A DNA stretch of 64,000 bases from Vitreimonas sp. GTDB taxonomy: Bacteria > Patescibacteriota > Microgenomatia > UBA1400 > PJMF01. Under the pieces are notes generated by a model, which was given only the letters and a program-made list of their open reading frames with translations, was not told the origin of the DNA and ran no database searches. The DNA is taken from contig DASPLQ010000012.1 in NCBI GenBank assembly GCA_035627515.1, forward strand, positions 1,098,331 to 1,162,330. Reading direction: 5' to 3'. Both the position numbers and the translations under genes were made by a program. Of the stretch, positions 9,319-37,164 are shown piece after piece. Every line of letters starts with the position of its first letter. The first letter of the stretch is position 1.

Positions 9319-9320
9319 AT

Positions 9321-10325: not shown

Positions 10326-10327
10326 TC

Positions 10328-19830: not shown

Positions 19831-20340
19831 ATGGCAGACATTTCTAACGTTAAAGTGGGAGTCTGTAGTGTCACCTTCGGTGGAACTGACTTAGGTCATA
19901 CCAAAGGGGGAGTTGAGGTTACTTACGAACCCGTACACAAAGACGTCATGGTTGATAAATTTGGTGAAACGATTGTTGAGAAATATCTCATTGGTGAGAA
20001 ACTCACTGCTAAAGTTCCTTTGGCTGAGTACACAATCGCTAACCTACGAAGATCCATGCCCCAAGCTACCTTTGCTGGAGCCGCTAACGCCCGGATTACT
20101 CTTGGTGCTAGTGCAGGTCAACGAGCTTCTACTGATGCCCTACAATTGGTGTTACACCCAATTAATGAAGGTACTAGAGCTTTCGACATCGTGTTCCACA
20201 AGGCATATGTCGCTTCTGAGATTGTTCTTAATCATAAAATTGATGAAGAAAAAGTCATCGAAGTGGTATTTGAAGCATTGCTCGACGAATCTAAGTCCGA
20301 TGGTAACTACCTAGGTCTTATTGGTGACTCGACTGCGTAA
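19831..20340 (+). CDS. major tail (tube) protein (putative)
   Basis: 169 aa directly upstream of the chaperone pair and tape measure; size typical of siphovirus tube proteins; no sheath gene present. Confidence 0.5.
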   Translation: MADISNVKVGVCSVTFGGTDLGHTKGGVEVTYEPVHKDVMVDKFGETIVEKYLIGEKLTAKVPLAEYTIANLRRSMPQATFAGAANARITLGASAGQRASTDALQLVLHPINEGTRAFDIVFHKAYVASEIVLNHKIDEEKVIEVVFEALLDESKSDGNYLGLIGDSTA

Positions 20341-20358: not shown

Positions 20359-20763
20359 TTGAGCCCGCCATTATTAACATATATGAAAAAAATCAATTTA
20401 GAGACACTAGAAAAAGAAGTTGAAATTAAAAAATTACCTATTGGCAAGTATGTTGAAGTGCTAAAAGCTTTGAATAATTTACCAAAAGAAATTTCAGGGT
20501 TAGAAAACATAACTCCTGAAGGAATAATTCAAAGACTTCCTAGCATAATTGCAAACAGCTTTGATGAACTGTGTAAAATAGTTTCTATCGCTACAGATAT
20601 GACTGATGATGAAGTTAAATCTATTAGTCTAGATGAACTAACAGAAATTATTATCACGGTAATTGAAGTAAACAAATTTGCTTCCATCGCCGATCGAGTA
20701 AAAAAAGCGTTCAGCCTAGCACCTCAAAAAACATCGACTATGATGAGTGGATCTGCTGGGTGA
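20359..20763 (+). CDS. tail assembly chaperone (G-like)
   Basis: 134 aa, acidic, immediately upstream of the tape measure region; contains slippery A AAA AAA at 20700-20706. Confidence 0.5.
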   Translation: MSPPLLTYMKKINLETLEKEVEIKKLPIGKYVEVLKALNNLPKEISGLENITPEGIIQRLPSIIANSFDELCKIVSIATDMTDDEVKSISLDELTEIIITVIEVNKFASIADRVKKAFSLAPQKTSTMMSGSAG

Positions 20764-21613: not shown

Positions 21614-23752
21614 ATGAGTATGAGTTTCGATTTAGGTTCCGTAGTTGCACGCGTAAGTGCTGACATCTCAAATTTTAAAGAGGGCATTACTGAAGCAAAA
21701 GGCCACCTTTCTTCTTTTGGTGACAAATTAGGAACAGTTACGTCAAGTATCAGTGATTTTAGTAATAAGGCTGCAGTATTCACAACGGTAGTAGGCGCTG
21801 GTTTTAGCTTGTTAGCAAAAGAGACAATAGCAACAGCTGCTAATTTTGAACAAACGGGAATTGCTTTCAGTACGATGGTAGGTGACGCCGAAAAGGCAAA
21901 GGATCTTTTAAAAGAGATTTCTAAATTTTCCCGGGAAACACCTTTTGAACTTGAACAAGTGCTAGAAGGATCAAAACGTCTTCTTGCATATAACGTGGCT
22001 GCTAAAGATGTTATTCCAACAATGGAGATGTTGGGAAATATTTCTTCAGGCGTTGGAAGAGACAAGTTGCCTCAGCTGATCTTAGCCTTTGGTCAGGTAA
22101 AAGCGGCTACAAAATTGACTGGGGCTGAGTTGAGACAGTTTTCTGAAGCTGGTGTCCCCCTTTTACAAGCACTTGTTGATGAAGCAAATAAGGGTGGGGG
22201 CATGTTAGTTAAGGTTGGAGATTCATCCAAGAAGGCGAAAGTAGATGTGGGCGAACTCAATGACAAATTGGGCATTGCTAAAAAGAGACTTGAAGAGGCT
22301 ACAAAAGCAGGTAAAGCCAAAGAATCTACAATGATGAGTTTGAAGAACACAGTTCAAAATTATGAGCAAAAAATAGGTAGCGCTACAGCGGCCACAGCGG
22401 CAGCCGGAACAGGCTTTAAAAGAGTTAAGGTCTCCGCTGCAGAGATGATTGCAGCAGTTAGTGATGGGCAAGTAAAGTTTGAGGATGTACAAAAAGCTCT
22501 CTCCGGAATGACTGCAAAGGGTGGCAAGTTCTTTGATCTTATGAAAAGGCAAAATTCAACATTGCCAGTTGCCCTATCAAATATTAAACAATCATTTCAA
22601 GAGTTATTTACTACAATACTTGGTGTAAGCGTTACCGGCGAAGTTGCGGATGGATCTATTTTTCAAAAATTAACTGTAGCTGCGTTAGATTTTATGAACT
22701 TCATAGAGTCAGCACGGCCTCAGATCACAGCCATGGTGCAAGGCGCCATTGCAGAAGCAGGGGCGTTCTTTGTAGGACTCTACAACACTCTTAAACCTAT
22801 TGGTGAATGGATTACTGCCAACCAACAAACAGTAATTACCTTTTTACAAGGTTTGGGAATTGCGCTGGGAGTTTTGTTGTCTGTTGGAACAATTACATTG
22901 TTACTTGCTGCTCTGCTAAACCCTTTGGTGTTAGTATCCTTAGGTATCGCTGCTTTATATACTGCATGGCAAACGAACTTTTTAGGTATTCAGACAATCA
23001 CTCAACAGGTAGCTGATTTTTTAAAGTTTGTGTTTGAAAACTTCATTCTACCTATCTTTAACTCCTTTATTGCCTGGCTTAATGAAGTATTTCTTCCCGC
23101 ATTTAACGTTGTCTTCAATGGGGTATTGGTTCCCTTATTTAACTCGTTTGTGGGATGGTTCAAGGATAGGTGGACCTTCATCACTTCGATGATTGATGGG
23201 GCTTGGAAAATTATTTCTGGAATCATCTTAATAGCGTGGAACACCATAAGCGGCTTCTTAACAGCAGGTCTACAGCTCTTGGCTGGAAACTGGAAAGGAG
23301 CTTTTGAAACATTGGTAAATATTACTGTTAACAACAGTGAGGCAATTAAGAGAATTTTTAGTGGCATCGTTGAGTTTGTGAAGGGGTGGGGTGGAACATT
23401 CTATAACGAACTAGTAAAACCATTTCAAGATGCCTGGAACAAAATTCAAGAATTAATCGATAAAATAAAAGATAAAGTTGACCTTACCAAGCGTCACTCA
23501 CCTTCCGTCCTCGATATTGTTAAAAACGGTGTCTCCAAAGTAAATAAAGCCTTAGGAGAGCTATCTGTATCTACTAACCTAGAGCCGAGAATAGCTGGAG
23601 CAGCTATCTCTAATAGCGCATCTACAAACATGACTCATGTCACAGTTAGTCTCGATGGGGCAATGATTGGAGATGAATTTAGCGCCATGAGAATGGCTGA
23701 GACTATTGGAAATGGAATTATTAAAAAACTTGGTCAAAACGTGAGGTATTAA
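21614..23752 (+). CDS. tail tape measure protein
   Basis: 712 aa, typical TMP N-terminus (MSFDLGSVVARVSADISNFKEG), coiled-coil middle, hydrophobic C-terminal region; follows the chaperone pair. Confidence 0.8.
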   Translation: MSMSFDLGSVVARVSADISNFKEGITEAKGHLSSFGDKLGTVTSSISDFSNKAAVFTTVVGAGFSLLAKETIATAANFEQTGIAFSTMVGDAEKAKDLLKEISKFSRETPFELEQVLEGSKRLLAYNVAAKDVIPTMEMLGNISSGVGRDKLPQLILAFGQVKAATKLTGAELRQFSEAGVPLLQALVDEANKGGGMLVKVGDSSKKAKVDVGELNDKLGIAKKRLEEATKAGKAKESTMMSLKNTVQNYEQKIGSATAATAAAGTGFKRVKVSAAEMIAAVSDGQVKFEDVQKALSGMTAKGGKFFDLMKRQNSTLPVALSNIKQSFQELFTTILGVSVTGEVADGSIFQKLTVAALDFMNFIESARPQITAMVQGAIAEAGAFFVGLYNTLKPIGEWITANQQTVITFLQGLGIALGVLLSVGTITLLLAALLNPLVLVSLGIAALYTAWQTNFLGIQTITQQVADFLKFVFENFILPIFNSFIAWLNEVFLPAFNVVFNGVLVPLFNSFVGWFKDRWTFITSMIDGAWKIISGIILIAWNTISGFLTAGLQLLAGNWKGAFETLVNITVNNSEAIKRIFSGIVEFVKGWGGTFYNELVKPFQDAWNKIQELIDKIKDKVDLTKRHSPSVLDIVKNGVSKVNKALGELSVSTNLEPRIAGAAISNSASTNMTHVTVSLDGAMIGDEFSAMRMAETIGNGIIKKLGQNVRY

Positions 23753-23754
23753 TA

Positions 23755-25185
23755 ATGGCATACAGTATAACCATCGCCGGATTAGATCGAACTGCAGATG
23801 TGACCAACATGTCTCCTTCGATTACCGATGATCTTAATGACCAAGCTAATTCGCTACAATTCACTTTGGTTGACTTAAGTGGTCAAGGATTGCCTGAACT
23901 AGAAGATGAGGTTGTTATTACTTTGGCCGATGATAGCAAGATTTTCGGAGGAACTATTATCTCCACTAACTTAAAAAAGAAAGAGATGGGAACGGTTGCA
24001 GCAACAGTTCAGTGCATTGATTACACTCGATTACTCGATTCAAATCTTGTGGCAACTTCTTATCAAAACAAAACTGATCAGTTTATTATTCGTGATATTG
24101 TTTCAAACTATTGTGCCGGCACTGGGATCACCACGGCAAACGTTGGCCTCGGGGTGACAATTGACCAGATCACCTTTAATTACTTACAGCCTTCACAGTG
24201 TTTTAGAAAAATTGCTGAATTAACAGGGAGAAATTGGTACATCGATTATGATAAAGACGTACACTACTTTGCTTCTACTGAAAATGCCGCTCCTTTTGAC
24301 ATAAATAGTTCTAACGCTGAATATTTTGATTTAAATATTAGCAAGGATGCAAGTCAAATTAAAAATCGTGTGTACGTTCGGGGAGGAACTTACTTAAGTG
24401 ATACTTTCACTTTCGAAGAAAAAGGTGATGGAAAAAAAAGATCATTTACCCTGCCTGATAAACCACATGACATCACTTTTGCAATTAATGGAGTAAGTAA
24501 GTCTGTTGGTATTAAAAACGTAAATCTAACTGGTTTTGATGCGTATTTGAACTTTCAGGAAAAATATGTTGAGTTAGACGCCTCAATTACAACACCCACA
24601 GACTCTGACACTCTGACATTTACCTATCAATACGATATTCCAATTTTAGTAGCTGTAGAAGATTTTGATTCCATTGAGACTTATGGTCAAAAAGAATTTG
24701 CTATTTTTGATAAAACAATCAGAACAACTCAAGCGGGGCGCGATAGAGCTCAGGCTGAACTAACAGATTATGCAAATAACGTTATTGAGGGAAATTTCAA
24801 AACTCATACAACAGGATTTGTCTCAGGTCAATTTTTAAACATCAATCTTCCTGAGTATGGGGTAAATGCAGACTACTTAGTCCAAAGGGTTTCTGCAACC
24901 TCAATGGGTGGTGGAATGTATGAATACTCTGTAGACATAGTTAGTGCCAAAACCGTTGGCATTATTAAATTCTTAATCGAGTTGTTAGAAGCAAATAAAA
25001 ACCTAGTCGAGCTTAATGATGATGAAGTCGTGGATGAATTATTTTCAGCCACTGATTCCCTCAACTCAGACTCATTAACCGATGCTTTAACTATCGACTC
25101 CCAGGGAGCTTACTTCACTTGGGCTACTGACTCTTTAGAAATAACACAAACAAGGTTGAGGTGGGATCTCGGTCAATGGGGATAA
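23755..25185 (+). CDS. distal tail / baseplate hub-like protein
   Basis: 476 aa immediately after the TMP (ATAATGG overlap). Confidence 0.45.
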   Translation: MAYSITIAGLDRTADVTNMSPSITDDLNDQANSLQFTLVDLSGQGLPELEDEVVITLADDSKIFGGTIISTNLKKKEMGTVAATVQCIDYTRLLDSNLVATSYQNKTDQFIIRDIVSNYCAGTGITTANVGLGVTIDQITFNYLQPSQCFRKIAELTGRNWYIDYDKDVHYFASTENAAPFDINSSNAEYFDLNISKDASQIKNRVYVRGGTYLSDTFTFEEKGDGKKRSFTLPDKPHDITFAINGVSKSVGIKNVNLTGFDAYLNFQEKYVELDASITTPTDSDTLTFTYQYDIPILVAVEDFDSIETYGQKEFAIFDKTIRTTQAGRDRAQAELTDYANNVIEGNFKTHTTGFVSGQFLNINLPEYGVNADYLVQRVSATSMGGGMYEYSVDIVSAKTVGIIKFLIELLEANKNLVELNDDEVVDELFSATDSLNSDSLTDALTIDSQGAYFTWATDSLEITQTRLRWDLGQWG

Positions 25186-25186
25186 T

Positions 25187-25666
25187 ATGAAAAACATTCA
25201 ATCTGAATCTCAACAATATATTCAAATCAAAGGTGAGCTAGAAATCATTTTGGAAAATGTGGTAACTGGCAAGAAACAAGTTTTTAAACAACATAATGTC
25301 ATTACTTCTTTAGCAAAAACTTCCATAGCCATGGCCCTAAGAGGTGATACGAGTAATAACCGGGGAACAATTACGTACTGTGCAGTAGGCACAAACACAG
25401 TTGCTCCCACAGCCGCAGACACCCAATTGGGAGCTGAGTTATTTAGAAAACAGGTCTCTGTGCGATCCAACTCTGCCAACGAGGCAGTTTTCCAAACTTT
25501 CTTCACCACATCTGAGGCGAATGGAACTTTGCGTGAAGCTGGTTTATTTGGATATGACGCTAGCGCTACTCCAAACTCAGGAACTTTATTTTCTAAGATA
25601 GCTATTAACAGAGTGAAAACCTCAAATGACACACTCACATTTAGGTGGACTATAACAATAGGATAA
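25187..25666 (+). CDS. tail tip/baseplate protein (putative)
   Basis: 159 aa; position. Confidence 0.3.
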   Translation: MKNIQSESQQYIQIKGELEIILENVVTGKKQVFKQHNVITSLAKTSIAMALRGDTSNNRGTITYCAVGTNTVAPTAADTQLGAELFRKQVSVRSNSANEAVFQTFFTTSEANGTLREAGLFGYDASATPNSGTLFSKIAINRVKTSNDTLTFRWTITIG

Positions 25667-25675
25667 GGAGTAATT

Positions 25676-26068
25676 ATGGTGCAATCAAGTGCTGTGGTAG
25701 CTGGAACTAACGCAACAGCAGACCAATACAACAAATTAAGAAATGATGCCCTCTTAGGGCTTAAAAGCGTGTCTGCTATTGCAACTGGCGCTGTTGACCT
25801 TTCCATAACAAACGATTGGGACATTACTCTTGATGATGCTTCTACTACCGTTGTATTTTCTAACGCAACAGTTGGTCAATGGTTTCAGGTGACAGCTATT
25901 CAAGATGCGACTGGAGGGCGGCTAATTACCTGGCCCGCAGGAATCAAATGGCCTGGAGGCGTTGCCCCAACTCTCTCTACGGCAGCTAACGCCATCGATA
26001 CGTTTATTTTCAAATGCACCGCTACCAATGTGTATCGGGGTTATTTTGGTGGATTTAACATGTCCTAA
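25676..26068 (+). CDS. tail tip protein (putative)
   Basis: 130 aa; position. Confidence 0.3.
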   Translation: MVQSSAVVAGTNATADQYNKLRNDALLGLKSVSAIATGAVDLSITNDWDITLDDASTTVVFSNATVGQWFQVTAIQDATGGRLITWPAGIKWPGGVAPTLSTAANAIDTFIFKCTATNVYRGYFGGFNMS

Positions 26069-26091
26069 TTATTATTAAAAAGAAAGACAAG

Positions 26092-26292
26092 ATGACTAAA
26101 TTCAAAACAGTTTTTAAATATTACTTAAATGCATTCGACAATAAGATTGGGGATGTGATTGAGAACAAAGTGCCAATTAGCCTTTTTGCTGATTCGGAAA
26201 AGGAAGCTTTAGATAGAGCCAAGAAGCACGTATCGCGGAAAAAGTATGAGGTGGTAGAAGTTCAAGAAATTGTTGATGATACAAAACGTTAA
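26092..26292 (+). CDS. hypothetical small protein
   Basis: 66 aa, charged. Confidence 0.25.
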   Translation: MTKFKTVFKYYLNAFDNKIGDVIENKVPISLFADSEKEALDRAKKHVSRKKYEVVEVQEIVDDTKR

Positions 26293-26295
26293 ATT

Positions 26296-27570
26296 ATGTT
26301 GACGCCTAATGTAACTATTCCATACGATAGCACCCACGCCTCAATACCAGGCGGTTTTTCTCGTGAGACCACACTTGATGGTAAATATCCCAAAGGTGCG
26401 CCAAATCTCACAAACCCTGGTGGCGCAGGTGGAGCATCAACACATACACATACTTCACCAAGCCACTCACACAGCTTTGCGTCACATACTCACAATATCA
26501 GCACCTCAAGCAACTTTCATCAGTTATTAATTCCAAACAATCAGTCTGATTCTGGCGGCAGTTCAATCGGACGAGGAACCCACTCTCATACGGGAACAAC
26601 ATCAGCTTTGACAAGCGAAACAGTTTCAAGTGAGGCTGTAACATATTCGAGTCAATCAAATGACCCCCCTTATTACGAAGTGATATTCATTAAATCGGTT
26701 GGTTATAACTCATTGCCCAATAATGCTATGTTACTCAACTCAGCAACTAGTAGAAATGGAATGAGTTTTCATACAGCTTCAGCAAATAGATTTCTCAAAG
26801 GAGCCGGCACGGGAGCTAATGCAGGTGGAACTGGAGGAAGTTTAACTAATTCTCATACAGTCAGTCACACGCACTCAACCTCGCACGGTCATACCGGAAC
26901 CACAGGCAACAATAGCGGTGGAACAATTGATCGTCAAAGTGGTTCTAACACTCCTCAGGGTTTATCCACTCATAGTCACGCCTTCTTATTGGATAATGCT
27001 TCAGTAACTTCTGATTCAAATAGTGCCATTACCTCACAATCGGAATCTGTTCAACCAGCTTTTAGAACTTTAAACGCGTTTAAGAACACCTCAGGATCAT
27101 CTATTGGTTTACTTCCAGGAGACATTGCCATGTGGCTTCAAAGCCTAGCTACCATACCAATAGGATGGGTTTTGTGTAATGGCAGCAATGGTACCCCTGA
27201 CATGAGAGATCAATTTTTAAAGATTCCAGCCTCAGCGTCTGCCACTACCACAGGAGGTAGCAATACACATACCCACGCAGCTCAAAGCCACACCCATACT
27301 GTTTCCTCCCATACTCATACAGGATCTGTTTCGCCGGCTGTGGAAACAACTTCTCGTAAAGCATCGGGTGATCAGGGAGATTGTTGGGGTGGTCCGAATG
27401 CTACAGAAATACCCAACCACACCTTATCAAGTATTTCCAGTACAGCAGGATCACTTCAGGCCGCTAACACTACAGCTAATTCATCTGATAACCAACCTGA
27501 ATACATTACTGTGGCGTTTATTCAATTTCAATATAGCCTGGGAGGTGCACCATTAGCATTCTTGATGTAA
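26296..27570 (+). CDS. tail fiber / receptor-binding protein with multiple His-x-His motifs
   Basis: 424 aa, Ser/Thr/Gly/His-rich; STHTHTSPSHSHSFASHTHN, GTHSHTGT, SHTVSHTHSTSHGHTGT, SNTHTHAAQSHTHTVSSHTHTG. Confidence 0.55.
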   Translation: MLTPNVTIPYDSTHASIPGGFSRETTLDGKYPKGAPNLTNPGGAGGASTHTHTSPSHSHSFASHTHNISTSSNFHQLLIPNNQSDSGGSSIGRGTHSHTGTTSALTSETVSSEAVTYSSQSNDPPYYEVIFIKSVGYNSLPNNAMLLNSATSRNGMSFHTASANRFLKGAGTGANAGGTGGSLTNSHTVSHTHSTSHGHTGTTGNNSGGTIDRQSGSNTPQGLSTHSHAFLLDNASVTSDSNSAITSQSESVQPAFRTLNAFKNTSGSSIGLLPGDIAMWLQSLATIPIGWVLCNGSNGTPDMRDQFLKIPASASATTTGGSNTHTHAAQSHTHTVSSHTHTGSVSPAVETTSRKASGDQGDCWGGPNATEIPNHTLSSISSTAGSLQAANTTANSSDNQPEYITVAFIQFQYSLGGAPLAFLM

Positions 27571-27576
27571 ATAATT

Positions 27577-27879
27577 ATGGAAATAGCCTGGAACGAAATA
27601 CTAATGACACTTTTGCCGCAACTTGGATTTGCGAGTGTGTTTATGTATCTCTATCACAAGGAAAAAGAAGAAAATAAAGAAAACATCAAGACTAGAGATA
27701 ATCGCATTCAGCAAATGACCGACAACTTAATGGAAGCCTACAGGAAAAATGGTGAGATTTGTGAGTCCCTTCAGAATGCTGTTGATAATAATACTAGAGC
27801 TATTGAACGCAACACAGCATCAGTCCAGAGCTTAAGTGAGAAGATACATACAACAATTACTTCTAGAAATGGGTCGTAG
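27577..27879 (+). CDS. membrane protein of lysis cassette (holin/antiholin or spanin-like)
   Basis: 100 aa; one N-terminal TM (LMTLLPQLGFASVFMYLY) then a charged coiled region. Confidence 0.35.
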   Translation: MEIAWNEILMTLLPQLGFASVFMYLYHKEKEENKENIKTRDNRIQQMTDNLMEAYRKNGEICESLQNAVDNNTRAIERNTASVQSLSEKIHTTITSRNGS

Positions 27880-27930
27880 GGTTGCTTAGAATGGTAGGTA
27901 GAAATATATCGAAGGAAAACAAAACAGATC

Positions 27931-28248
27931 ATGACAGATGATAGCATTCGAATACTAAACATCATTTTCGCTCTTGGGTCACTCCCTCCAACAGCAATTC
28001 TTTTGGTGTCACTCATTGCTGAGTATAAAAAAGCCCGCCTTTTATTAAAACCAACACTCACTGCACTCATCTTCTTGTTTGGAACATTTTTAGCTATTTC
28101 AATTGCTAATACGATAATCTCATTTTTTTTCTTAACTAATCAGGATCAATTAGCTACTCACTATTCATTACTACGTACGTTGTTTTTTGATGCAAGCTGG
28201 TTTACTGTATCATGGTCGTTCTTACTGATTCGCAGTAAATCAAAATAG
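27931..28248 (+). CDS. holin-like membrane protein
   Basis: 105 aa with ~3 predicted TM helices, directly upstream of the peptidase. Confidence 0.4.
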   Translation: MTDDSIRILNIIFALGSLPPTAILLVSLIAEYKKARLLLKPTLTALIFLFGTFLAISIANTIISFFFLTNQDQLATHYSLLRTLFFDASWFTVSWSFLLIRSKSK

Positions 28249-28263
28249 TGCTACTATTATTGT

Positions 28264-29361
28264 ATGCTGCCCACAACTCCTTTTAAAGGTGGTTATCGCC
28301 TTACCCAAACTTTTGGGAAACGTCCTGAGTATTACAGGCAATTTGGCTTTAATGGGCATGAAGGTTTAGATTTAGTTCCCCTCGTAAATAAAGTTCTCGA
28401 AGACAAAGACATTTATGCCGTTGAAGACGGTGAAGTTTTACGTGACGTTGACCCTGGCGAAAGATTCGATGCGTACGGCTATTTGACCGCCGTGTGGAAT
28501 CCATTAACTAAGCGCTGTTGGTGGTATGCCCACAACGCTTTCAACTTAGTGGAGCCAGGGCAAAAAATCAAACGAGGTCAAAAGATTGCTCGAATGGGCG
28601 GAAGCGGAAATGTACAAGGAGATCATCTCCATTTGGGCTTAACGATGAGTGATGAAAACAAGGTGAGATTAAATCAAACTAATGGCTATAAAGGATTTAT
28701 TGATCCTGAGCCAGCTCTAAAAGAGCTAAATCAAGGGGGAGTAGTTATGGCAAATACAATGACTATTGATACTGTTTTGTTCAGCAAACTGGTAGGAAAC
28801 AGTGGGAAATGGGACCTAACGGTCAAATATGTGGAGTTGCCCACCGACCCAGCTCTTACCTCATTTGAGGATGTTCAGAGGGTAGTTGCAGGGTATAAGT
28901 CTCGAGGAACTGATGTTCAGAACCAGATCAATGCAGCCACAGCAGAGCTCTCTAATAGAGTAGAGCAAGTTAGCAGACTTAAAGATCAAGCGCTAAACGA
29001 CCTAAATGTGCAAAAGACCCTACTGGACAACGCAATTTCAGCACGAATAAAAACCGAAGAAAGCCTTGGGGTAGTACAGGGGCAAGTAGTTCTAAAGCAA
29101 AACCAGATTGACGCTATAGCAAAGGAAAAAGGTGAATTAAATACTCAGTTGGTTGTTGCACAAAACTCCGCAAGTGATTGGCAAAAAAAGTATAACGACC
29201 TACTAACTACCCATGCGGTGGCTCATATCACCCTAGCTGATGCCATATTAATCTTGGCAAAATCCTTCTTTGGTTGGGCAAAGAATGTCCAATTGAAAAA
29301 AACCGAAGACTTAATAGATGTAGAAGAACTTATGGCAAAAGTTAACCCAGCAATTCAATAA
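28264..29361 (+). CDS. M23-family metallopeptidase (putative endolysin) with C-terminal coiled-coil region
   Basis: GFNGHEGLDL (HxxxD) and GDHLHLG (HxH) motifs in the N-terminal 150 aa; C-terminal ~170 aa Gln/Leu-rich coiled-coil. Confidence 0.7.
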   Translation: MLPTTPFKGGYRLTQTFGKRPEYYRQFGFNGHEGLDLVPLVNKVLEDKDIYAVEDGEVLRDVDPGERFDAYGYLTAVWNPLTKRCWWYAHNAFNLVEPGQKIKRGQKIARMGGSGNVQGDHLHLGLTMSDENKVRLNQTNGYKGFIDPEPALKELNQGGVVMANTMTIDTVLFSKLVGNSGKWDLTVKYVELPTDPALTSFEDVQRVVAGYKSRGTDVQNQINAATAELSNRVEQVSRLKDQALNDLNVQKTLLDNAISARIKTEESLGVVQGQVVLKQNQIDAIAKEKGELNTQLVVAQNSASDWQKKYNDLLTTHAVAHITLADAILILAKSFFGWAKNVQLKKTEDLIDVEELMAKVNPAIQ

Positions 29362-29384
29362 AGGCTTTAATAGCAATTACATTA

Positions 29385-29412
29385 AAGCCGTCCTAGTATG
29401 ACGGCTTTTTTG
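29385..29412 (+). terminator. rho-independent terminator after the lysis gene
   Basis: Stem AAGCCGTC / GACGGCTT with a 7-nt loop followed by TTTTTT. Confidence 0.5.
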
Positions 29413-29425
29413 GTCAAAGGAGTTT

Positions 29426-29839
29426 ATGGTAACACTTGAACACGCAATTGAGGGAGTCCTCAGACAAGGTCAAAATAGGCGAGCCTGGCAAGAAGGAGAT
29501 ACTGTTGAAGAAGTCTATAAAATGCTAGAGAACGAGCTTAAGGAGCTTTGGGGCGGACTAATGGAATCCTTTGTTACAGGTGATGTTTGGCCAGTGGCAA
29601 GTGAGGTTGGAGATATTCTTTTTCTTTTAATTAGGTTTTGTGAGTTGTGTGGATTGGAACCGGCTGATGTGCTTGATATGAAAACCAAGAGAAATGCTAA
29701 AAAATATGATGACGCCATTTGCAATGACGGATACTTGCCTGAGCAAGTTCCTGGAGTAGCAAAACAATCTTGGAAAGCGATGGGTGGTGACTACATGTTC
29801 TCAAACATTTATCTAGACTACCTAGCTCACGCCGACTAA
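29426..29839 (+). CDS. MazG-like nucleotide pyrophosphohydrolase
   Basis: 137 aa; EELKELWGG...DILFLLIRFCELCGLEPADVLDMKTKRNAKKY matches the MazG/dCTPase all-alpha NTP-PPase core. Confidence 0.6.
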   Translation: MVTLEHAIEGVLRQGQNRRAWQEGDTVEEVYKMLENELKELWGGLMESFVTGDVWPVASEVGDILFLLIRFCELCGLEPADVLDMKTKRNAKKYDDAICNDGYLPEQVPGVAKQSWKAMGGDYMFSNIYLDYLAHAD

Positions 29840-29891
29840 TTGGTTCCTTCCTACAGTTTAGTAAAGAATCGCATGGTATCCTCGGGGAAAT

Positions 29892-30071
29892 ATGAAAATA
29901 CTTCCTCCCCAAACCATGGTTAAATTACAGCACTTAGTGGGTTATTTCCCGTGTGCCTGGTGCATAAGTGAAAGATACAGGAAAATCAGCAATAAACTTA
30001 AAATGAGCCATGGAATCTGTGAAAAATGCGCACACGAACATTTCTATTCCTTACTTGATACAAGCCCATAG
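29892..30071 (+). CDS. small zinc-ribbon protein (59 aa; CAWC...CEKC), not in ORF track
   Basis: ATG 29892 to TAG 30069-30071; two CxxC pairs; tail-to-tail overlap (21 nt) with the integrase 3' end. Confidence 0.3.
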   Translation: MKILPPQTMVKLQHLVGYFPCAWCISERYRKISNKLKMSHGICEKCAHEHFYSLLDTSP

Positions 30072-31082
30072 TCCCGCTAATTGTTGCTCGAGAACAACCA
30101 TATCAAATCGCTTATCCTGCTCTAACTTAAAGCTCCTCACGGCATCAATTGCCTGTTTCAACAACTCGGGGGCAGGTATGTTATTTCGAATCATTGGATG
30201 CATGAAAGTAGCTTTTCTAAGTGTTTCATCTGCTAAATGAGCATAGTTATTAAAGGTTGTTTGAATGTCTTTATGACCAAGAAGGTCGGCAACTTTGGTA
30301 ATTTCCACCCCTGAAGAGAGCAGCTGAGTCGCAAAGGAATGTCTAAAAAGGTGTGGATGGACACGTTTAGTGACTTTTGCATCAACTGCCCTTCTTTTCA
30401 GATCTGGAATAAATTCTTGCTCACGTATCTTGGTATTCATCATGCTTGTGAAAATAAGGTCGGTTCGTTCCTTTTTCTCTGAATCAATAATGTATTGAAG
30501 TTCTGAAACCAAAGGCTCTGATATGAAAGCAAGTCTATATTCTGTGTTTTTAGTTTTAATGAATCTGGCTTTACCATTTGAAATGTCAAGGTTTGCAAGT
30601 GTTAAGCTGGCGCACTCATCATATCGGCAGCCTGTTGTGGCTAAAAAGCGGATCATTGCTTTATAAACAGTGTTCAGTCTGCTGCAATCTCTACCTCTAA
30701 AATTACCATAACTCATATCGATAGAGAGTATCGCCTCAATTTCATTAACAGAAAGTACATCAATTACTGGTTTAATTTTGGGAAAAGACTTAATACCTTT
30801 AAGAAAATCTTCAGTTTCTGGCTCACGATCCCTTAGGTAAGCTAGAAGTTGCCGAAGCATAAAAATGTATGTATTAATTGTGTTAGTGTGGAGGCCTTTA
30901 TTTTTCAGTTCAAAGAGAAACCGCTCAATATGATTGACAGTGATGTTTGTGACAAGGTTTTCGGGTTTTTCACACCACTCGATGAATATACCAAGACGAC
31001 TCAACACGTGCCTGATGGAGCTATCCGAAATACCCTGCTTTATCGTGATAAATTGGATAAAATCAGCAGAGTTAATTTTCAC
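30051..31082 (-). CDS. int: tyrosine-type site-specific integrase
   Basis: Catalytic region HPHLFRHSFATQLLSSGVEITKVADLLGHKDIQTTFNNYAHL (R..H..R..Y); N-terminal SAM-like domain; last phage gene before the host genes. Confidence 0.85.
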   Translation of the reverse strand: MKINSADFIQFITIKQGISDSSIRHVLSRLGIFIEWCEKPENLVTNITVNHIERFLFELKNKGLHTNTINTYIFMLRQLLAYLRDREPETEDFLKGIKSFPKIKPVIDVLSVNEIEAILSIDMSYGNFRGRDCSRLNTVYKAMIRFLATTGCRYDECASLTLANLDISNGKARFIKTKNTEYRLAFISEPLVSELQYIIDSEKKERTDLIFTSMMNTKIREQEFIPDLKRRAVDAKVTKRVHPHLFRHSFATQLLSSGVEITKVADLLGHKDIQTTFNNYAHLADETLRKATFMHPMIRNNIPAPELLKQAIDAVRSFKLEQDKRFDMVVLEQQLAGLWACIK

Positions 31083-31221
31083 CTTTTCCTACTTCATTTA
31101 ACATATTAAAGGTTATGCTTCAGTTATAAAACCCGAAACTTTGCAAGCATACTTTCATTAAAAAACAATTAACATTTGATAGGTAGAAATAGGACAATTG
31201 GAGCAGGTCAAAACTGCTGTA

Positions 31222-31250
31222 TTGACAGCCGTTCTGAACAGTTGTACTAT
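31222..31250 (+). promoter_or_regulatory. sigma70-like promoter (TTGACA - 17 nt - TACTAT)
   Basis: TTGACA at 31222-31227, 17-nt spacer, TACTAT at 31245-31250, ~140 nt upstream of the 31394 gene. Confidence 0.35.
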
Positions 31251-31393
31251 GAAGCATATCGGTACTAACTAGCACTTTAAATACACTTCTAAGCATAGTT
31301 AGTGACAAGACATTAAAATTCTTCTTTAAATTGAGACTCCGTTGAGATTCCCGCTTTCTTGAGGCAGAAGTAATTAACACACTACCACAACGC

Positions 31394-32284
31394 ATGTTGA
31401 ATGAAGAGCAAACTTCTTTATACGATAGTACCCAACCAGTGATTTTGGGTGCTGAATGGCTCGCAAGATCTCTCATTTTAACTCAGAGTGAGATGGCTGT
31501 TTCTGACATAGACTCACTTGAAGAATGTTTACCTCAGTTAGCTGCAGCTATTACTTTACAGGCTGAGTATTTGTTCATTCCCCGTCATAGTGGGACACAA
31601 ATGAGATTGACAAGAGGTTTACCAATTAATGCAGATGTCATTGCCACGACTGGGTTAGCGACTTTTCTTTCTGAAGCAGTATCAGAAAGAAAAAAAGGTA
31701 TCAATGACAAGGAGCTCGAGATTGTGATGTTAATTGGGCACCAAGGTTCGGGAAAAGGAGTGGTGGCAGAATACTTTGAAGCCCAAGGATACACGATTTT
31801 AACGATGTCAGAAATTGTCAGACAAGTTGTTGAGGCTTGGGGATTAAATTCCAGTTTAACGGAAGACAAGATTGTTGGGGGACAGATATTAAAACAGTAT
31901 TTTGGTTTAGACATTTTAGTGAGGTTAGGCATTGATTACTTACAAAGATCAGGAAAATCTAAGATCTTGATCGATGGACCTCGTGTTCCCGAAGAGGTTG
32001 AAGCTGCAAAAATGATGGGTGCTAGACTTTATGGAATTGTCACTGATTTAGACGGTGAAAAAGATCGTCTTCGACGGAAAGAGTTAATAATCAAACGATC
32101 ACAGGAAGATGTAAATCGCGCTCAAGACGCAGTTAAATTTGATATTCGCGAAGCCCAAGAGGCAGATAAAATAAATGCTTTATTGCGGATTGAAAGCGTT
32201 AAGATCTTTGTTAATAATGCCCCAAGTGTGGGTGAGCTTAATGCAGCATTAGATGTTTTTTTTGCCCAAGAACGTGCTACTTAA
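31394..32284 (+). CDS. P-loop nucleoside/nucleotide kinase-family protein with ~100-aa N-terminal extension
   Basis: Walker A IGHQGSGKG and a lid-like ILIDGPRVPEEVE segment; precise family not determinable by eye. Confidence 0.35.
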   Translation: MLNEEQTSLYDSTQPVILGAEWLARSLILTQSEMAVSDIDSLEECLPQLAAAITLQAEYLFIPRHSGTQMRLTRGLPINADVIATTGLATFLSEAVSERKKGINDKELEIVMLIGHQGSGKGVVAEYFEAQGYTILTMSEIVRQVVEAWGLNSSLTEDKIVGGQILKQYFGLDILVRLGIDYLQRSGKSKILIDGPRVPEEVEAAKMMGARLYGIVTDLDGEKDRLRRKELIIKRSQEDVNRAQDAVKFDIREAQEADKINALLRIESVKIFVNNAPSVGELNAALDVFFAQERAT

Positions 32285-34341: not shown

Positions 34342-37164
34342 ATGCCCAAAGTCACCGATTTTAAACAAACCCCAGAATTTCCTTTACTCGAAGAACAAGT
34401 ATTAGAGTTTTGGCAAAAAAATAATTCTTTTGAAAAGTCAGTGGAGATGCGCTCTGCTGATAAATCTTATGTGTTTTATGATGGACCACCGTTTGCCACC
34501 GGGTTGCCACATTATGGCCATTTATTAGCGTCAACTACTAAGGATGTGGTGCCACGTTACTGGACGATGAAAGGGTATCGTGTGGAGCGAGTGTGGGGTT
34601 GGGACTGTCATGGTTTGCCGATCGAAAATATGATCGAAAAGAAATTGGAGATCAAAGGTGGTAAAAAAGGTATCGAAAAGTTGGGCATCGATACTTTCAA
34701 TGCAGCCTGTCGTGCTGAAGTGCTGCGTTTGGATAAAGAATGGGAAAAAATTATTGGCCGCTTGGGCAGATGGGTGGATTTTGAGAACAACTATAAGACT
34801 ATGGACACGACCTTTATGGAATCTGTCTGGTGGGGGTTTAAGCAGCTATATGATAAGGGTTTGACGTATGAAGGCCGTAAGGTTATTTTGTACTGTCCTC
34901 GTTGTTCGACACCGTTGTCCAACTTTGAGATCGCGATGGATAACTCATATAAGGAAGTGACAGAATCGGGCACGACGTATAAATATAAGCTTGTTGGTCA
35001 AGATAATACGTATTTATTAGCCTGGTCCACCACACCTTGGAATAAAATTGTTACACCAGCTTTGGCGGTCAATCCTGAGTTGAGTTACGTTAAGGTTAAA
35101 CAAGGCAATGAACACTATGTGTTAGCTGAAACGCGTTTGGAGAGTTTAAGCAGTGATCACTATGAAGTAGTGGAGCGCTACACAGGCAAAGACTTAGAAG
35201 CGTTTGTATTTGAAACTCATTATCAATTTTTTCCGTTGCAACCCGGTGAAAAAGCTGGCGTGGTGATTGCAGATCCATTTGTAACTGCCGAAGAGGGGAC
35301 AGGTGTAGTGACATTGGCTGTCTATGGTGAAGATGACTATCGAGTGATGAAGGCGCACAACATCCAGTTGGCTGAGCATGTGGATGATGAAGGTCGTTTG
35401 AAAGCCGAGGTCACTCCATGGGCAGGTATGGATATCTTGAAAGCTAATCCATTAGTAAATGACGACCTAGCTGAACGCGGTTTAGTTTATAAAGATGAAG
35501 CTTATACCCACAGTGTGCCCACCTGTTACCGGTGCGCCACGCGTTTATATAACGCGCCGTTGCCGGCTTGGTTCATTAAAGTTGGCCACTTACGAGATGA
35601 GTTAATTGCCCAAAATGAAAAAGTGAATTGGTTCCCTGGTCATCTCAAAGAAGGTCGGTTTAGAAAAGGACTCGAAAACGCGCCTGATTGGAATATTTCT
35701 CGTTCGCGGTATTGGGGAACTCCCATGCCGATTTGGGAAGGTGAAGACGCGCATGGTAAAAAAATTCGGCGAGTGATTGGTTCACTTGAAGAGCTTCAAA
35801 CCTGGGCAGTTGAACCTAAAAAAGCTGCTAAACTAACCGATATTCATCGTGAATTTTTAGATGGCATTGAAGTCTGGGTTGATGAAGATAAAACCGTAAA
35901 AGGTAACAGAGTGGCTGAAGTCTTTGATTGTTGGGTGGAATCGGGCTCGATGCCATTTGCGGCCCTTCATTATCCGTTTGAAAATAAAGCTCACTTTGAA
36001 GCTAATTTCCCGGCTCAGTTTGTGAGCGAGTACATCGCTCAAACTCGGGCGTGGTTTTATACCATGCATGTGATGTCAGTAGGGGTGTTTGGTAAACCAT
36101 CATTTGAAAATGTGCTCACTACCGGCACGATCCTCGCTGAAGATGGTTCCAAAATGAGTAAATCGAAAAATAACTATCCTGATCCCATGATCTTGATCAA
36201 TAAATATGGTGTAGATAGCTTGCGTTTGTATCTGATGAGCTCTACGGTGATGAAAGGTGAAAACCTTAACTTTAGTGAAAAAGACGTCGCTGATCTGCGT
36301 CGCAAGGTGTTTGTGATTTGGTGGAATGTGTTTGCGTTTTATCAAAATTTTGCCAACCACAAAGCCGGTTTTGCGCAGCCAGACTTTGAGCCTGAACATG
36401 TGATGGATAAATGGTTGCTCAGCCGTGTTAATCATCTGACACAGCAAGTCACCAAGTATATGGATAACTATGACGTGGTTCGCGCTAGCCGGACGCTGAT
36501 GGAGTTTGTGGACGAGCTGTCGACTTGGTATTTGCGATTGAGTCGCGAACGCATCAAAAATGACGAACAGGGCCAAGCCAGTCAAGTATTTGGATACACT
36601 TTATATACTTTGGCTCAGTTGTTTGCGCCATTAGCACCCTTTTTCTCGGAGGTGATCCACCACACCATGGTAGATACTAAAACTTCAATTCATCACACTG
36701 ATTGGCCAAGTGTCAACAAAGCAGCGCTGCAGCCTGAATTGGAAACCAAAATGACCGAGGTCCAAAAAGTAGTCGAAAAAGGTCACGCTGTGCGCAAAGA
36801 AGCGGGAGTAAAAGTTCGCCAACCACTCGCAGAAGTCAAAGTAGTTTCGCCTGTCACCGCGCCTGCTGATAAAGTTCTTGAGGTTCTAAAACAAGAACTC
36901 AACGTCAAAGCTGTCAGCTGGATGAAAGCCGAAGAAATGAGCGTCAGCTTAGATCTGAATCTCACTCCCGAACTCGAAGCCGAAGGCAAAGCTCGTGACC
37001 TGATGCGTAGCATCCAAAACTTACGCAAAGAGGCGGGACTGGCGGTAGGTGATGTAGCAACTGTTACTGCACCTGAATGGCCAGCTGAGTGGCAAGCTGA
37101 AATCGAAGCCAAGACTAAGACGAAGTTGGTGAAGGGTGAAAGCTTGGCGTTGGTTAGCTCATGA
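34342..37164 (+). CDS. ileS: isoleucyl-tRNA synthetase
   Basis: Class I motifs PPFATGLPHYGH and KMSKS; CP1 editing-domain-like region; 940 aa. Confidence 0.9.
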   Translation: MPKVTDFKQTPEFPLLEEQVLEFWQKNNSFEKSVEMRSADKSYVFYDGPPFATGLPHYGHLLASTTKDVVPRYWTMKGYRVERVWGWDCHGLPIENMIEKKLEIKGGKKGIEKLGIDTFNAACRAEVLRLDKEWEKIIGRLGRWVDFENNYKTMDTTFMESVWWGFKQLYDKGLTYEGRKVILYCPRCSTPLSNFEIAMDNSYKEVTESGTTYKYKLVGQDNTYLLAWSTTPWNKIVTPALAVNPELSYVKVKQGNEHYVLAETRLESLSSDHYEVVERYTGKDLEAFVFETHYQFFPLQPGEKAGVVIADPFVTAEEGTGVVTLAVYGEDDYRVMKAHNIQLAEHVDDEGRLKAEVTPWAGMDILKANPLVNDDLAERGLVYKDEAYTHSVPTCYRCATRLYNAPLPAWFIKVGHLRDELIAQNEKVNWFPGHLKEGRFRKGLENAPDWNISRSRYWGTPMPIWEGEDAHGKKIRRVIGSLEELQTWAVEPKKAAKLTDIHREFLDGIEVWVDEDKTVKGNRVAEVFDCWVESGSMPFAALHYPFENKAHFEANFPAQFVSEYIAQTRAWFYTMHVMSVGVFGKPSFENVLTTGTILAEDGSKMSKSKNNYPDPMILINKYGVDSLRLYLMSSTVMKGENLNFSEKDVADLRRKVFVIWWNVFAFYQNFANHKAGFAQPDFEPEHVMDKWLLSRVNHLTQQVTKYMDNYDVVRASRTLMEFVDELSTWYLRLSRERIKNDEQGQASQVFGYTLYTLAQLFAPLAPFFSEVIHHTMVDTKTSIHHTDWPSVNKAALQPELETKMTEVQKVVEKGHAVRKEAGVKVRQPLAEVKVVSPVTAPADKVLEVLKQELNVKAVSWMKAEEMSVSLDLNLTPELEAEGKARDLMRSIQNLRKEAGLAVGDVATVTAPEWPAEWQAEIEAKTKTKLVKGESLALVSS

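Follow-up and report, generated by a model that had tools for sequence, protein, structure and literature searches.

A three-repeat phage tail protein with a conserved histidine ladder is probably a single-chain, pseudo-trimeric fibre tip

The window, by which we mean the whole 64,000-nucleotide stretch of DNA analysed, carries a siphovirus-type prophage, and the gene studied here is its last tail gene. In the ORF list it spans 26296..27570 (+ strand, stop codon included), starts with ATG and encodes a 424-aa protein. Upstream lies the gene for a tape measure protein (21614-23752), followed by one for a YQBQ-like tail-tip protein (23755-25185); between the latter and the 424-aa gene are three small tail ORFs. 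On the 3′ side of the 424-aa gene come two membrane ORFs, both small, and an endolysin of the M23 peptidase type. The gene is the last structural gene ahead of the lysis genes, as it is in loci L001, L004 and L006. The original prediction had placed it at the tail-tip end of the operon, and the upstream tail genes together with the downstream lysis region bear this out.

Two of the neighbouring small ORFs belong to a conserved tail-tip cassette. The 159-aa ORF (25187..25666, + strand; PHROG 5417, E 6e-25) looks like the N-terminal part of a tail (collar) fibre protein, weakly matching the N-terminal regions of PHROG 4176 and 1780, and is 44-46% identical to the syntenic ORFs in L004 and L006. 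The 130-aa ORF (25676..26068, + strand) matches PHROG 9017 ‘tail fiber protein’ (E 8e-18) and is similar to C-terminal domains of tail fibre proteins; its syntenic homologues have the Pfam domain Phage_phiTE_241_C. Immediately 5′ of the 424-aa gene, across a 3-nt gap, is a 66-aa ORF (26092..26292, + strand), and a 62-70-aa homologue of it (26-46% identity) adjoins the homologue of our target on the upstream side in L001, L004 and L006. This ORF had no family match in Pfam, PHROG or NCBIfam and gave a poor single-sequence AF2 model (pLDDT 68, pTM 0.48); its product is a candidate adaptor or chaperone. PDB sequence searches returned nothing usable for the 159-aa, 130-aa and 476-aa neighbours, an NCBIfam scan matched neither the 424-aa protein nor the tail-tip cassette, and a promoter and terminator scan of 23000-31500 yielded counts at or below chance.

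The length and coordinates of the 424-aa ORF are exactly as the original prediction gave them, and its description as Ser/Thr/Gly-rich, with recurrent HxH clusters, also holds. The protein contains 70 S, 55 T, 45 G and 25 H, with Ser, Thr and Gly together making up 40% of its residues, and every motif string quoted earlier was found in it. There are ten HxH motifs, starting at aa 50, 57, 64, 96, 191, 197, 226, 325, 332 and 339, compared with 1.41±1.12 in the shuffled protein (shuffle maximum 7; at least ten in 0 of 20000 shuffles). No genuine H-x-H-x-H run occurs in the protein, ‘THTHT’ being one HxH. The motifs fall into six clusters, such that each repeat of the protein, as described below, has an ascending triple and a descending single or half motif.

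Profile matches place the 424-aa protein in the phage tail-collar fibre-tip superfamily. Residues 6-421 align with positions 396-827 of the 968-position profile of PHROG 5795 ‘tail protein’ (E 3.1e-32), and PHROG 1800 ‘tail collar fiber protein’ is matched with E 8e-13. Pfam Collar (PF07484) reaches 13.5 bits (E 0.073) over aa 275-298 only, below its gathering threshold of 24 bits, while 51 of 115 homologues match it at E<=0.01 (best E 2.8e-7) and the relative P0153 scores 26.1 bits. The family is large: we collected 895 homologues, the best 120 of them full length, and the module that makes up the protein occurs in 882 clusters at 50% identity (E<=1e-30), beyond which there are 8127 weaker relatives. 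Some relatives string two or three modules in one chain, and others are fused to Tal-like proteins (Prophage_tail, Sipho_Gp37, YQBQ) or bear CBM_4_9 or Laminin_G_3 domains; BLAST and HMM searches of 255 relatives found no fusion of the module to any of its neighbours in the window, the Tal-like and lectin-like partners being the sole ones seen. We infer that the 424-aa protein attaches to the tail; neither Pfam nor PHROG recognises an N-terminal anchoring domain in it.

The protein consists of three tandem, diverged repeats, which hhalign relates to one another with probabilities of 99.3-99.6% (R1 vs R2, E 2.6e-20; R1 vs R3, 7e-25; R2 vs R3, 9.5e-21), and no other ORF in the window matches the repeat HMM. 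All features within the gene are on the + strand. Repeat 1 (aa 1-135, 26296..26700; repeat-HMM domain at aa 2-135, E 2e-36) comprises a degenerate collar N part, the motifs H50/H52, H57/H59 and H64/H66, a distal loop, H96/H98 and the C strand ‘NDPPYYEVIFIK’. Repeat 2 (aa 136-265, 26701..27090; repeat-HMM domain at aa 137-269) has the ladder N185/H187, H191/H193 and H197/H199, a distal loop, H226/H228 and the C strand ‘VQPAFRTLNAFK’. Repeat 3 (aa 266-411, 27091..27528) holds the PHROG 1800 match (aa 265-409) and the weak Pfam Collar match (aa 275-298), and runs from a canonical collar motif ‘IPIGWVLCNGSNGTPDMRDQFLK’ through H325/H327, H332/H334 and H339/H341, a distal loop and P373/H375 to the C strand ‘NQPEYITVAFIQ’. 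The ‘GW.LCDG’ signature of the collar is lost in repeats 1 and 2. The repeat alignment equates the C strands as ‘PPYYEVIFIK’, ‘QPAFRTLNAFK’ and ‘QPEYITVAFIQ’. In each repeat the collar N part and the C strand stand about 90-100 residues apart, flanking an inserted region, and covary with each other (Y31-D123, F166-Q253 and F307-Q400). The linkers between repeats are 6-11 residues long, with hardly any length variation across 249 aligned modules. A C-terminal tail, ‘QYSLGGAPLAFLM’ (aa 412-424, 27529..27567; consensus ‘gg..l’), follows repeat 3; its sequence is variable (entropy 3.06 bits) with a Gly-Gly and hydrophobic pattern kept, AF2 models aa 418-423 as a helix at lower pLDDT, and a role as docking peptide is speculative.

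The original prediction had named a lack of HxH conservation in homologues as a result that would refute it; the motifs are essentially invariant. The 20 HxH histidines, H187 and H375 are 98-100% conserved in 120 homologues of 39-62% identity, and 22 ladder histidines are at least 95% conserved in the 249 modules, where only positions 185 and 373 vary. The ascending ladder of repeat 1 (aa 49-67, 26440..26496) carries three HxH motifs at 7-residue spacing, with His 50, 52, 57, 59, 64 and 66 being 99-100% conserved; that of repeat 3 (aa 325-341, 27268..27318) has His 325, 327, 332, 334, 339 and 341 at 98-100%. The corresponding ladder of repeat 2 (aa 185-199, 26848..26892) has Asn at its first position, where 161 of the modules have Asn and 83 have His and which covaries with the repeat-3 residues Q330 and T392. 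Between the two histidines of an HxH, the modules have T, S, N or G. hhalign sets the ascending motifs in register as 50/52, 185/187 and 325/327 (layer 1), 57/59, 191/193 and 332/334 (layer 2) and 64/66, 197/199 and 339/341 (layer 3). The descending motifs make up layer 4 (96/98, 226/228 and 373/375), which by the repeat alignment consists of H96/H98 (26581..26589), H226/H228 (26971..26979) and the half motif P373/H375 (27412..27420), position 373 being His in 119 of 249 modules. The repeat alignment thus puts the ladder histidines in four layers of 5, 6, 6 and 5, so that two layers are one His short in the 424-aa protein. The modules carry 22 (104 modules), 23 (67) or 24 (54) ladder histidines, and the layers are 6, 6, 6, 6 in 54 of the 249 aligned relatives.

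Between the ascending and descending motifs lie the three distal loops: loop 1 at aa 68-94 (26497..26577; entropy 3.28 bits, gap fraction 0.32), loop 2 at aa 201-224 (26896..26967; 3.18 bits, 0.23) and loop 3 at aa 343-372 (27322..27411; 3.02 bits, 0.37). Their entropy of 3.0-3.3 bits, with many indels, compares with 1.3-1.9 bits in the collar and ladder of the 249 modules. Low AF2 confidence is limited to these loops, with pLDDT 54-74 in loop 1, about 54 around aa 211-225 in loop 2 and 47-49 at aa 350-370 in loop 3. By analogy with fibre tips, the three loops would form a receptor-contact tip.

The AF2 monomer model, built on a 115-sequence alignment, is compact (pLDDT 88.7, pTM 0.82), although AF2 is possibly biased to close repeats into known trimer folds. 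Mean-field DCA of the 249 modules revealed cyclic coevolution between the repeats. Inter-repeat pairs make up 62 of the top 100, and 23 of these join R1 to R3. In the top 150 there are 88 cross-repeat pairs, of which 61 recur at the equivalent position of another interface when each repeat is matched to the next and R3 to R1, compared with 10.3±4.2 for random pairs (maximum 27), 39±4.4 for partner shuffles (maximum 53) and 27 for the swapped orientation. The contacts are equal at R1→R2, R2→R3 and R3→R1, and the ring is therefore closed. Exact coevolving triplets occur, for example D123-K168, Q253-K309 and Q400-K33, and show acid-base covariation (D-K to N-R), and the terminal strands of the protein covary with each other as well (V6-I409). 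AF2 and DCA draw largely on one alignment, so these two lines are not independent. Among 255 relatives the repeat number is 3 (248 relatives), 6 (four), 9 (one) or 2 (two), and the two 2-repeat relatives look N-terminally truncated because they are short and start inside a module. On the model and the coevolution, the three repeats probably fold on each other in cis, as opposed to building a homotrimer with chain-interdigitated HxH motifs. With the three tandem repeats folded in this way, the ten HxH motifs would most likely form four sites, all within a single chain, and not the ten expected of a trimer. A domain-swapped oligomer that meets the same contacts between chains is unlikely.

Two readings of the histidines were set aside. 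A low-complexity or non-structural His-rich product is ruled out because the ladder histidines are conserved, the fold is confident and synteny is kept. A metallo-enzyme is without support: no catalytic family was matched, and the histidines sit in a repeated ladder.

We propose that the 424-aa protein, as the distal tail protein of the prophage, is probably a collar-needle built as a pseudo-trimer from one chain, which would have about four metal sites and whose three hypervariable loops would be the receptor-binding tip. Each repeat would take the part of one subunit of T4 gp37, T4 gp12 or C24, the homotrimeric relatives, contributing collar strands on its N-terminal side, an ascending strand that bears three HxH motifs, a distal loop, a descending HxH strand and a C-terminal collar strand. 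The repeats would pack round a pseudo-threefold axis, with the C strand of each repeat docking on the ‘Y/F-x-K-G’ strand of the next and repeat 3 docking back on repeat 1. This packing would stack the histidines in four layers of 5, 6, 6 and 5 imidazoles, each of which would be expected to bind one metal ion octahedrally, as in gp37 (Fe) and gp12 (Zn), and the ions would staple a thin needle with little hydrophobic core. At the far end, the three differing loops would form an asymmetric receptor-binding tip, a role suggested by where the gene lies, by how variable the loops are and by analogy.

The classical reading, implied by the original prediction, takes the protein for a homotrimeric fibre: each HxH would meet its two copies from the other chains, to give about ten metal sites in three successive trimeric domains. 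Such an assembly would agree with all the solved relatives, PDB 6ov6, 9qgo and 9nxk having three identical chains each, and with T4 gp37 and gp12, both homotrimers, and it fits the HxH conservation equally well. The topology of the repeats argues otherwise: a collar-needle repeat starts and finishes in the collar, and linkers of 6-11 residues are too short to pass the needle, therefore the chain cannot go from one needle to the next. Strong R1-R3 coevolution and identical contacts at three interfaces would likewise be unexpected for domains in line, and the compact monomer model and the repeat numbers of 3, 6 or 9, apart from the two seemingly truncated relatives, also speak against a homotrimer, which we regard as highly improbable. 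The original prediction of a metal-stapled fibre of the gp37/gp12 kind accordingly survives in part: membership of the fibre-tip superfamily and the gp37 motif order stand, whereas the chain-interdigitated homotrimer gives way to cis repeats and cyclic contacts.

Two further alternatives keep the single-chain pseudo-trimer and differ in what it does. It could serve as a tail-tip cap stiffened by metal, or as a needle that pierces the envelope, sitting on the threefold axis of the tail-tip protein and recognising no receptor. It would then work like the apex of the spikes P2 gpV and Mu gp45, with its HxH-iron site, or like PAAR, which is itself one chain with internal pseudo-threefold symmetry that caps a trimeric spike and binds metal at its tip. 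The far end of our protein has three long, indel-rich hypervariable loops and no conserved sharp apex, and relatives with two or three modules and inserted carbohydrate-binding or lectin-like domains are typical of adhesins; the closest solved relative, moreover, is a receptor-binding tip, and a Pfam scan at E<=1 found no PAAR_motif in the 424-aa protein. We therefore consider a cap or needle rather unlikely, even though fusions to Tal-like tail-tip proteins occur among the relatives, the protein stands alone without an anchor domain, and spike-tip HxH-iron sites are thought to lend rigidity in membrane puncture (PMC11821841). Alternatively, the same fold might hold a His ladder that lacks a permanent structural metal, as a core of H-bonded or stacked imidazoles or as a pH- or metal-sensitive switch at host contact. 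That two of the four layers have five histidines and that position 185 is Asn in most modules would suit this reading, but six inward-facing histidines with a small polar x are the pattern that binds Fe in gp37 and Zn in gp12, and 95-100% conservation at 22 positions in sequences 39-62% identical exceeds the usual demands of packing. A ladder without permanent structural metal thus appears very unlikely.

If the single-chain pseudo-trimer is correct, triplication and fusion have reduced a collar-needle fibre tip to one chain, leaving its three tip loops free to diverge, an outcome comparable to double-jelly-roll capsid proteins or PAAR. To our knowledge, the collar-needle fibre tip has so far been known only as an intertwined homotrimer that needs dedicated chaperones. 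‘Ferrojan horse’ calculations of phage metal reportedly count HxH motifs and assume one ion per motif per trimer; if three motifs of one chain share one ion, each protein would hold about 4 ions, compared with 10-12 per fibre. A monomeric, self-contained and modular receptor-binding scaffold would also be attractive for retargeting phages and tailocins. We know of no characterised phage receptor-binding protein for Patescibacteria hosts, and the presence of the module in a Patescibacteria prophage and in 882 clusters would give access to uncultivated phages, with the Actinoplanes phage phiAsp2 as a cultivable model that has the same module. A broader generalisation, which we offer as a tentative possibility, is that this is a natural single-chain metal-stapled tip with four ions, no trimerisation chaperones and three independently evolving loops, a portable bead of one to three modules that tolerates insertions between repeats, is fused to various tail proteins and is widespread in uncultivated phages, including CPR prophages. 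Equally tentatively, the incomplete outer layers, where five His are joined by Asn or another residue, might serve as exchangeable or sensory sites through which metal or pH acts on infection.

Nothing relevant came up when the literature was searched for collar or HxH fibres that are pseudo-trimeric or have internal repeats, and no description of the three-repeat module was found in the searchable literature. The known systems nevertheless offer several points of comparison. PAAR spike-tip proteins are an analogy and not homologues, their fold and motifs being unrelated and their small conserved cone lacking hypervariable loops. T4 gp12 is a homotrimer with one metal site, in which an HxH from each of the three chains binds one Zn, and the collar motif of gp12 and Pfam Collar is present in repeat 3.

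As related in PMC11705849 (citing Bartual 2010), T4 gp37 is a homotrimer whose HxH motifs bind seven Fe, with six His from three strands per ion. The order of elements in its tip is that of each repeat here, from a collar motif to HxH outward, a variable tip, HxH back and a C-terminal collar strand. The collar motif is of the kind ‘..IP.GW/F....G....PDMR..xlKg’, the gp37 C strand ‘N.aFNYIV’ compares with ‘QPEYITVAFIQ’, and gp37 also has S, T or G as the x of HxH. In contrast to the gp37 homotrimer, three repeats of one chain would stand in for the subunits here; gp37 has seven sites against four layers, the ascending motifs of our protein are packed 7 residues apart, and gp37 comes from a T4-like myovirus while the 424-aa protein comes from a siphovirus prophage. 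Direct homology between the two did not emerge: the repeat HMM gave no significant match to gp37 (with that one sequence searched, the best domain had i-E 0.06 and a negative score), and neither gp37 nor gp12 is among the PDB sequence matches of the 424-aa protein or the R3 profile. Kinship to gp37 runs via C24/6OV6 and the common motif order.

C24, the prophage tip from Bizionia argentinensis (PDB 6OV6), is the closest solved relative of the 424-aa protein, and PMC11821841 describes it as a receptor-binding protein that resembles the tip of the T4 long tail fibre. Among the matches of the R3 profile, 6ov6 is aligned from collar N part as far as C strand (E 2.3e-11), followed by 9qgo (E 4e-10) and 9nxk (E 2e-5), and Foldseek matched 6ov6 with probability 0.99 over one repeat’s worth. 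C24 differs in having one collar in each of its identical chains, in covering one third of our model (TMq 0.20), and in that its aligned region is without the triple ascending ladder, a single HSH preceding the C strand.

In tblastn searches of isolated phages, only the short collar motif was matched, except in phiAsp2, whose Pas28 and Pas29 are true family members with the whole three-repeat module. Each has exactly 12 HxH motifs, or 3 x (3+1), such that all 24 ladder positions are His, and both fall in PHROG 5795 by profile coordinates. Searches of the literature found no structural or repeat analysis of either protein. The two proteins, 936 and 1291 aa in length, surround the module with a long N-terminal part and a C-terminal part of ~140 aa, the module of Pas29 lying at aa ~380-790, and their host is an actinomycete. 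The GenBank note on Pas29 calls it a possible receptor-recognising protein with HxH motifs, and when superposed on our whole model, the BFVD monomer models of the two proteins give TMq 0.75 and E 1e-27 for Pas29 and TMq 0.65 and E 1e-25 for Pas28.

The target gene (26296-27570, + strand, ATG start in the ORF list) encodes a 424-aa protein that is 40% Ser, Thr and Gly (Ser and Thr make up 29%) and holds 25 His. Twenty of these build ten HxH motifs, starting at aa 50, 57, 64, 96, 191, 197, 226, 325, 332 and 339; shuffled versions of the protein carried 1.41±1.12 HxH (maximum 7), and ten were reached in 0/20000 shuffles. The motif strings quoted in the original prediction are all present except the H-x-H-x-H run, which was not found in the 424-aa protein. 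A search of 5.8 billion proteins returned 895 relatives, the best 120 of which are 39–62% identical over their full length and nearly all 410–440 aa long. The 20 HxH His, together with H187 and H375, are 98–100% conserved in these best 120 of 895, and the same 22 His are at least 95% conserved in an alignment of 249 modules, a module being a complete three-repeat unit. The loss of HxH motifs in homologues that would have spoken against a metal-stapled fibre is therefore not what was found, and the motifs are under strong selection.

When the family alignment was cut into thirds (aa 1-135, 136-265 and 266-424), profile-profile comparison matched these to one another with 99.3–99.6% probability (E 2.6e-20, 7e-25 and 9.5e-21). 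Each repeat runs in the same order, from an N-terminal collar part (canonical in repeat 3 only, 'IPIGWVLCNGSNGTPDMRDQFLK') through 'TGGS' and three HxH spaced 7 residues, then a variable loop and a single HxH, to a long strand and a C-terminal strand ('NDPPYYEVIFIK', 'VQPAFRTLNAFK', 'NQPEYITVAFIQ'). The repeat alignments place the target's His in register in four layers of 5, 6, 6 and 5 His: L1 (H50, H52 / N185, H187 / H325, H327), L2 (H57, H59 / H191, H193 / H332, H334), L3 (H64, H66 / H197, H199 / H339, H341) and L4 (H96, H98 / H226, H228 / P373, H375), and it is from this register that we infer the imidazole geometry. Across the 249 modules the ladder varies at two positions only, 185 (N 161, H 83) and 373 (H 119), and 54 modules have the full set of 24 ladder His. 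N185 (26848-26850) shows covariation with Q330 (27283-27285) and T392 (27469-27471), both in repeat 3: Asn at 185 pairs with Q330 and T392, and His with N/A/T/G330 and I/V392, which suggests a compensated change at the first predicted metal site.

The original prediction had the HxH motifs of three interdigitated chains meeting along a homotrimer, a reading that is probably wrong: five lines of evidence favour a single chain forming the whole needle. AlphaFold2, given one chain and 115 homologues, produced a compact model (mean pLDDT 88.7, pTM 0.82, 311 residues with pLDDT >90), in which only the three distal loops (aa 75-92, 211-225 and 350-370) have low confidence. Mean-field DCA of the 249 modules (Neff 245), which rests on largely the same alignment as the AlphaFold2 model, assigned 62 of the 100 strongest couplings to residues in different repeats (R1-R2 15, R2-R3 24, R1-R3 23, where R1, R2 and R3 are the successive repeats). 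The top 150 couplings contain 88 cross-repeat pairs. Read in the orientation Rn→Rn+1 and closing with R3→R1, 61 of these have a counterpart at the matching position of another interface, and 41 have one at both remaining interfaces; for the former count, random pairs gave 10.3±4.2 (maximum 27 in 1000 trials), shuffled partners 39.0±4.4 (maximum 53) and the opposite orientation 27. The inter-repeat couplings of the module are cyclically equivalent. They include an exact triplet, D123-K168 / Q253-K309 / Q400-K33, an acid-base pair that covaries from D-K to N-R, as well as a second one, G29-G171 / N164-A312 / D305-P36; V6-I409, a covariation between the first and last strands of the module; and the ladder-adjacent couplings F61-V336, V115-V189, V189-T392 and E108-L387. 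Linkers between repeats are 6–11 residues and nearly invariant in length across the 249 modules, and in the collar-needle topology a repeat has its two ends in the collar, so that the next repeat must begin alongside its predecessor rather than past it. A single-repeat HMM scan of 255 relatives counted three repeats in 248, six in four and nine in one, the sole exceptions being two relatives with two repeats, which look N-terminally truncated because they are only 288–295 aa long and start inside the module.

The collar itself has solved relatives. The target scored 13.5 bits against Pfam Collar, below threshold, and 51 of 115 family members matched it; repeat 3 hits PHROG 1800, 'tail collar fiber protein' (E 8e-13). 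The repeat 3 profile also matches C24 (6OV6, from a Bizionia prophage; E 2.3e-11, from the N part of the collar through the C strand), a receptor-binding protein likened to the T4 long-fibre tip (PMC11821841), and 9QGO (E 4e-10) and 9NXK (E 2e-5), all three being fibre proteins solved with three identical chains per entry. A Foldseek search of the PDB with the model returned 6OV6 alone, over one repeat only (TMq 0.20, probability 0.99), and no chain with the whole three-repeat fold. Since the solved homologous collars are threefold assemblies, a ring of three repeats linked in cis closes on itself. That the target is instead three trimeric domains stacked linearly, a homotrimer in trans, is highly improbable, as such stacking explains neither the R1-R3 contacts nor the ring closure.

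An exhaustive profile search of 1.84 billion cluster representatives found 882 relatives at E<=1e-30, 8127 at E<=1e-10 and 17429 at E<=0.001, and Actinoplanes phage phiAsp2 is the one isolated phage that carries the complete module. Its Pas28 (1291 aa) and Pas29 (936 aa) carry 12 HxH each in a 3 x (3+1) pattern, and their BFVD monomer models match the whole target model (TMq 0.65 and 0.75, respectively); a 2004 GenBank note calls Pas29 a 'possible receptor recognizing protein; contains HXHY motifs'. Some relatives string two or three modules on one chain, with nine repeats in P0121. The giant relatives P0121 (2022 aa), P0122, P0123, P0124 and P0226 hold two or three complete modules, with extended runs of a short 'AKA(S/R)I(K/Q)..' repeat or other domains in between. 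Foreign domains also sit between repeats of one module (CBM_4_9 in P0165, an unassigned domain in P0167), and modules are fused to YQBQ-like, Sipho_Gp37 plus Prophage_tail, or Laminin_G_3 sequences. Such stringing, insertion and fusion fit the behaviour of a self-contained domain.

The gene belongs to a complete-looking siphovirus-type prophage (350-31082) reaching from the terminase region to the integrase: terminase (867-2426), portal (2433-3929), major head protein (5695-6612), head-tail adaptor (17860-18555), major tail protein (19831-20340), tail chaperone (20359-20763), tape measure (21614-23752), YQBQ-like tail-tip protein (23755-25185), three small tail ORFs (159, 130 and 66 aa), the target, two small ORFs, an M23-peptidase endolysin candidate (28264-29361) and a tyrosine-type integrase (30051-31082, - strand). 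The predicted place at the tail-tip end of the operon was borne out, the target being the last tail gene with lysis genes downstream. Its homologues hold that position in three other phage contigs, with a 62–70-aa ORF directly upstream and lysis genes downstream, and two of the three (L004, L006) have homologues of the 159-aa and ~135-aa genes upstream. A conserved four-gene tail-tip cassette (159 aa, ~130 aa with Phage_phiTE_241_C, ~65 aa and ~420 aa) spans 25187-27570 in the window, 5913-8248 in L004 and 5904-8284 in L006; the ~65-aa ORF, a candidate adaptor or chaperone, adjoins or overlaps the target gene at 4/4 loci. The endolysin candidate has its M23 peptidase domain at the N terminus (aa 32-128), and the ~200 residues that follow gave no family match above threshold; the syntenic phages encode Amidase_3, Peptidase_C39 or Glucosaminidase lysis enzymes instead. 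Between the major head and connector genes, 6690-13924 holds two glycosyltransferase genes (6690-7910 and 8179-9318; PHROG 2170, E 2e-35 and 2e-24) together with several ORFs that lack annotation, and may be a virion-glycosylation cassette; in phiAsp2, glycosyltransferases sit right after the Pas28/29 tail genes. An 821-aa ORF (15390-17855), which follows the head genes and precedes the head-tail adaptor, drew no meaningful PHROG annotation.

Downstream of the integrase, the host part (31100-64000) carries ileS, rodA, gatA and gatB; GC content is ~0.41. The target's exact sequence is deposited as 'hypothetical protein' on a 1.41-Mb contig of a MAG labelled 'Vitreimonas sp.', a doubtful NCBI label that looks wrong, the host being most likely a Patescibacteria (CPR) bacterium, because IleRS (34342-37164) is 67–72% identical to proteins that carry the names Patescibacteria, Paceibacterota, Woesebacteria and Pacebacteria and are encoded on contigs of 1.1–1.4 Mb.

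The most variable regions of the module are the three loops that join an ascending to a descending strand of the ladder (aa 68-94, 201-224 and 343-372), with an entropy of 3.0–3.3 bits, a gap fraction of 0.23–0.37 and a mean insertion of ~5–6 residues, compared with 1.3–1.9 bits for the collar, ladder and C strands over the 249 modules. Because the target is the last tail gene and akin to receptor-binding fibre tips, and because its relatives have lectin-type companions and the distal loops are variable, a receptor-binding tip is the best reading, and a spike cap or piercing device is unlikely. In such a tip the His ladder would serve as a structural staple of the needle; that it is metal-free, or has a sensing role, we consider very unlikely. 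The target lacks an N-terminal anchor domain; its C-terminal Gly-Gly and hydrophobic tail are a candidate tail attachment, and the always adjacent 66-aa ORF is, by synteny, a candidate attachment partner.

Trimeric fibres and spikes with metal-binding HxH sites are already well known. The literature searched did not describe a collar or HxH fibre tip triplicated within one chain, and Pfam and NCBIfam held no curated family for the three-repeat module. The likeness to T4 gp37 put forward in the original prediction holds in part: direct comparison did not detect gp37 from the target family by sequence, but the gp37 tip and the target repeats share their order of elements. In gp37, the collar motif ends 'IPDMRGQTIKG', seven HxH with S, T or G as the middle residue are found, and the C-terminal strand is 'NIAFNYIVRLA'; there, as reported in PMC11705849, seven iron ions are bound by HxH motifs from three chains.
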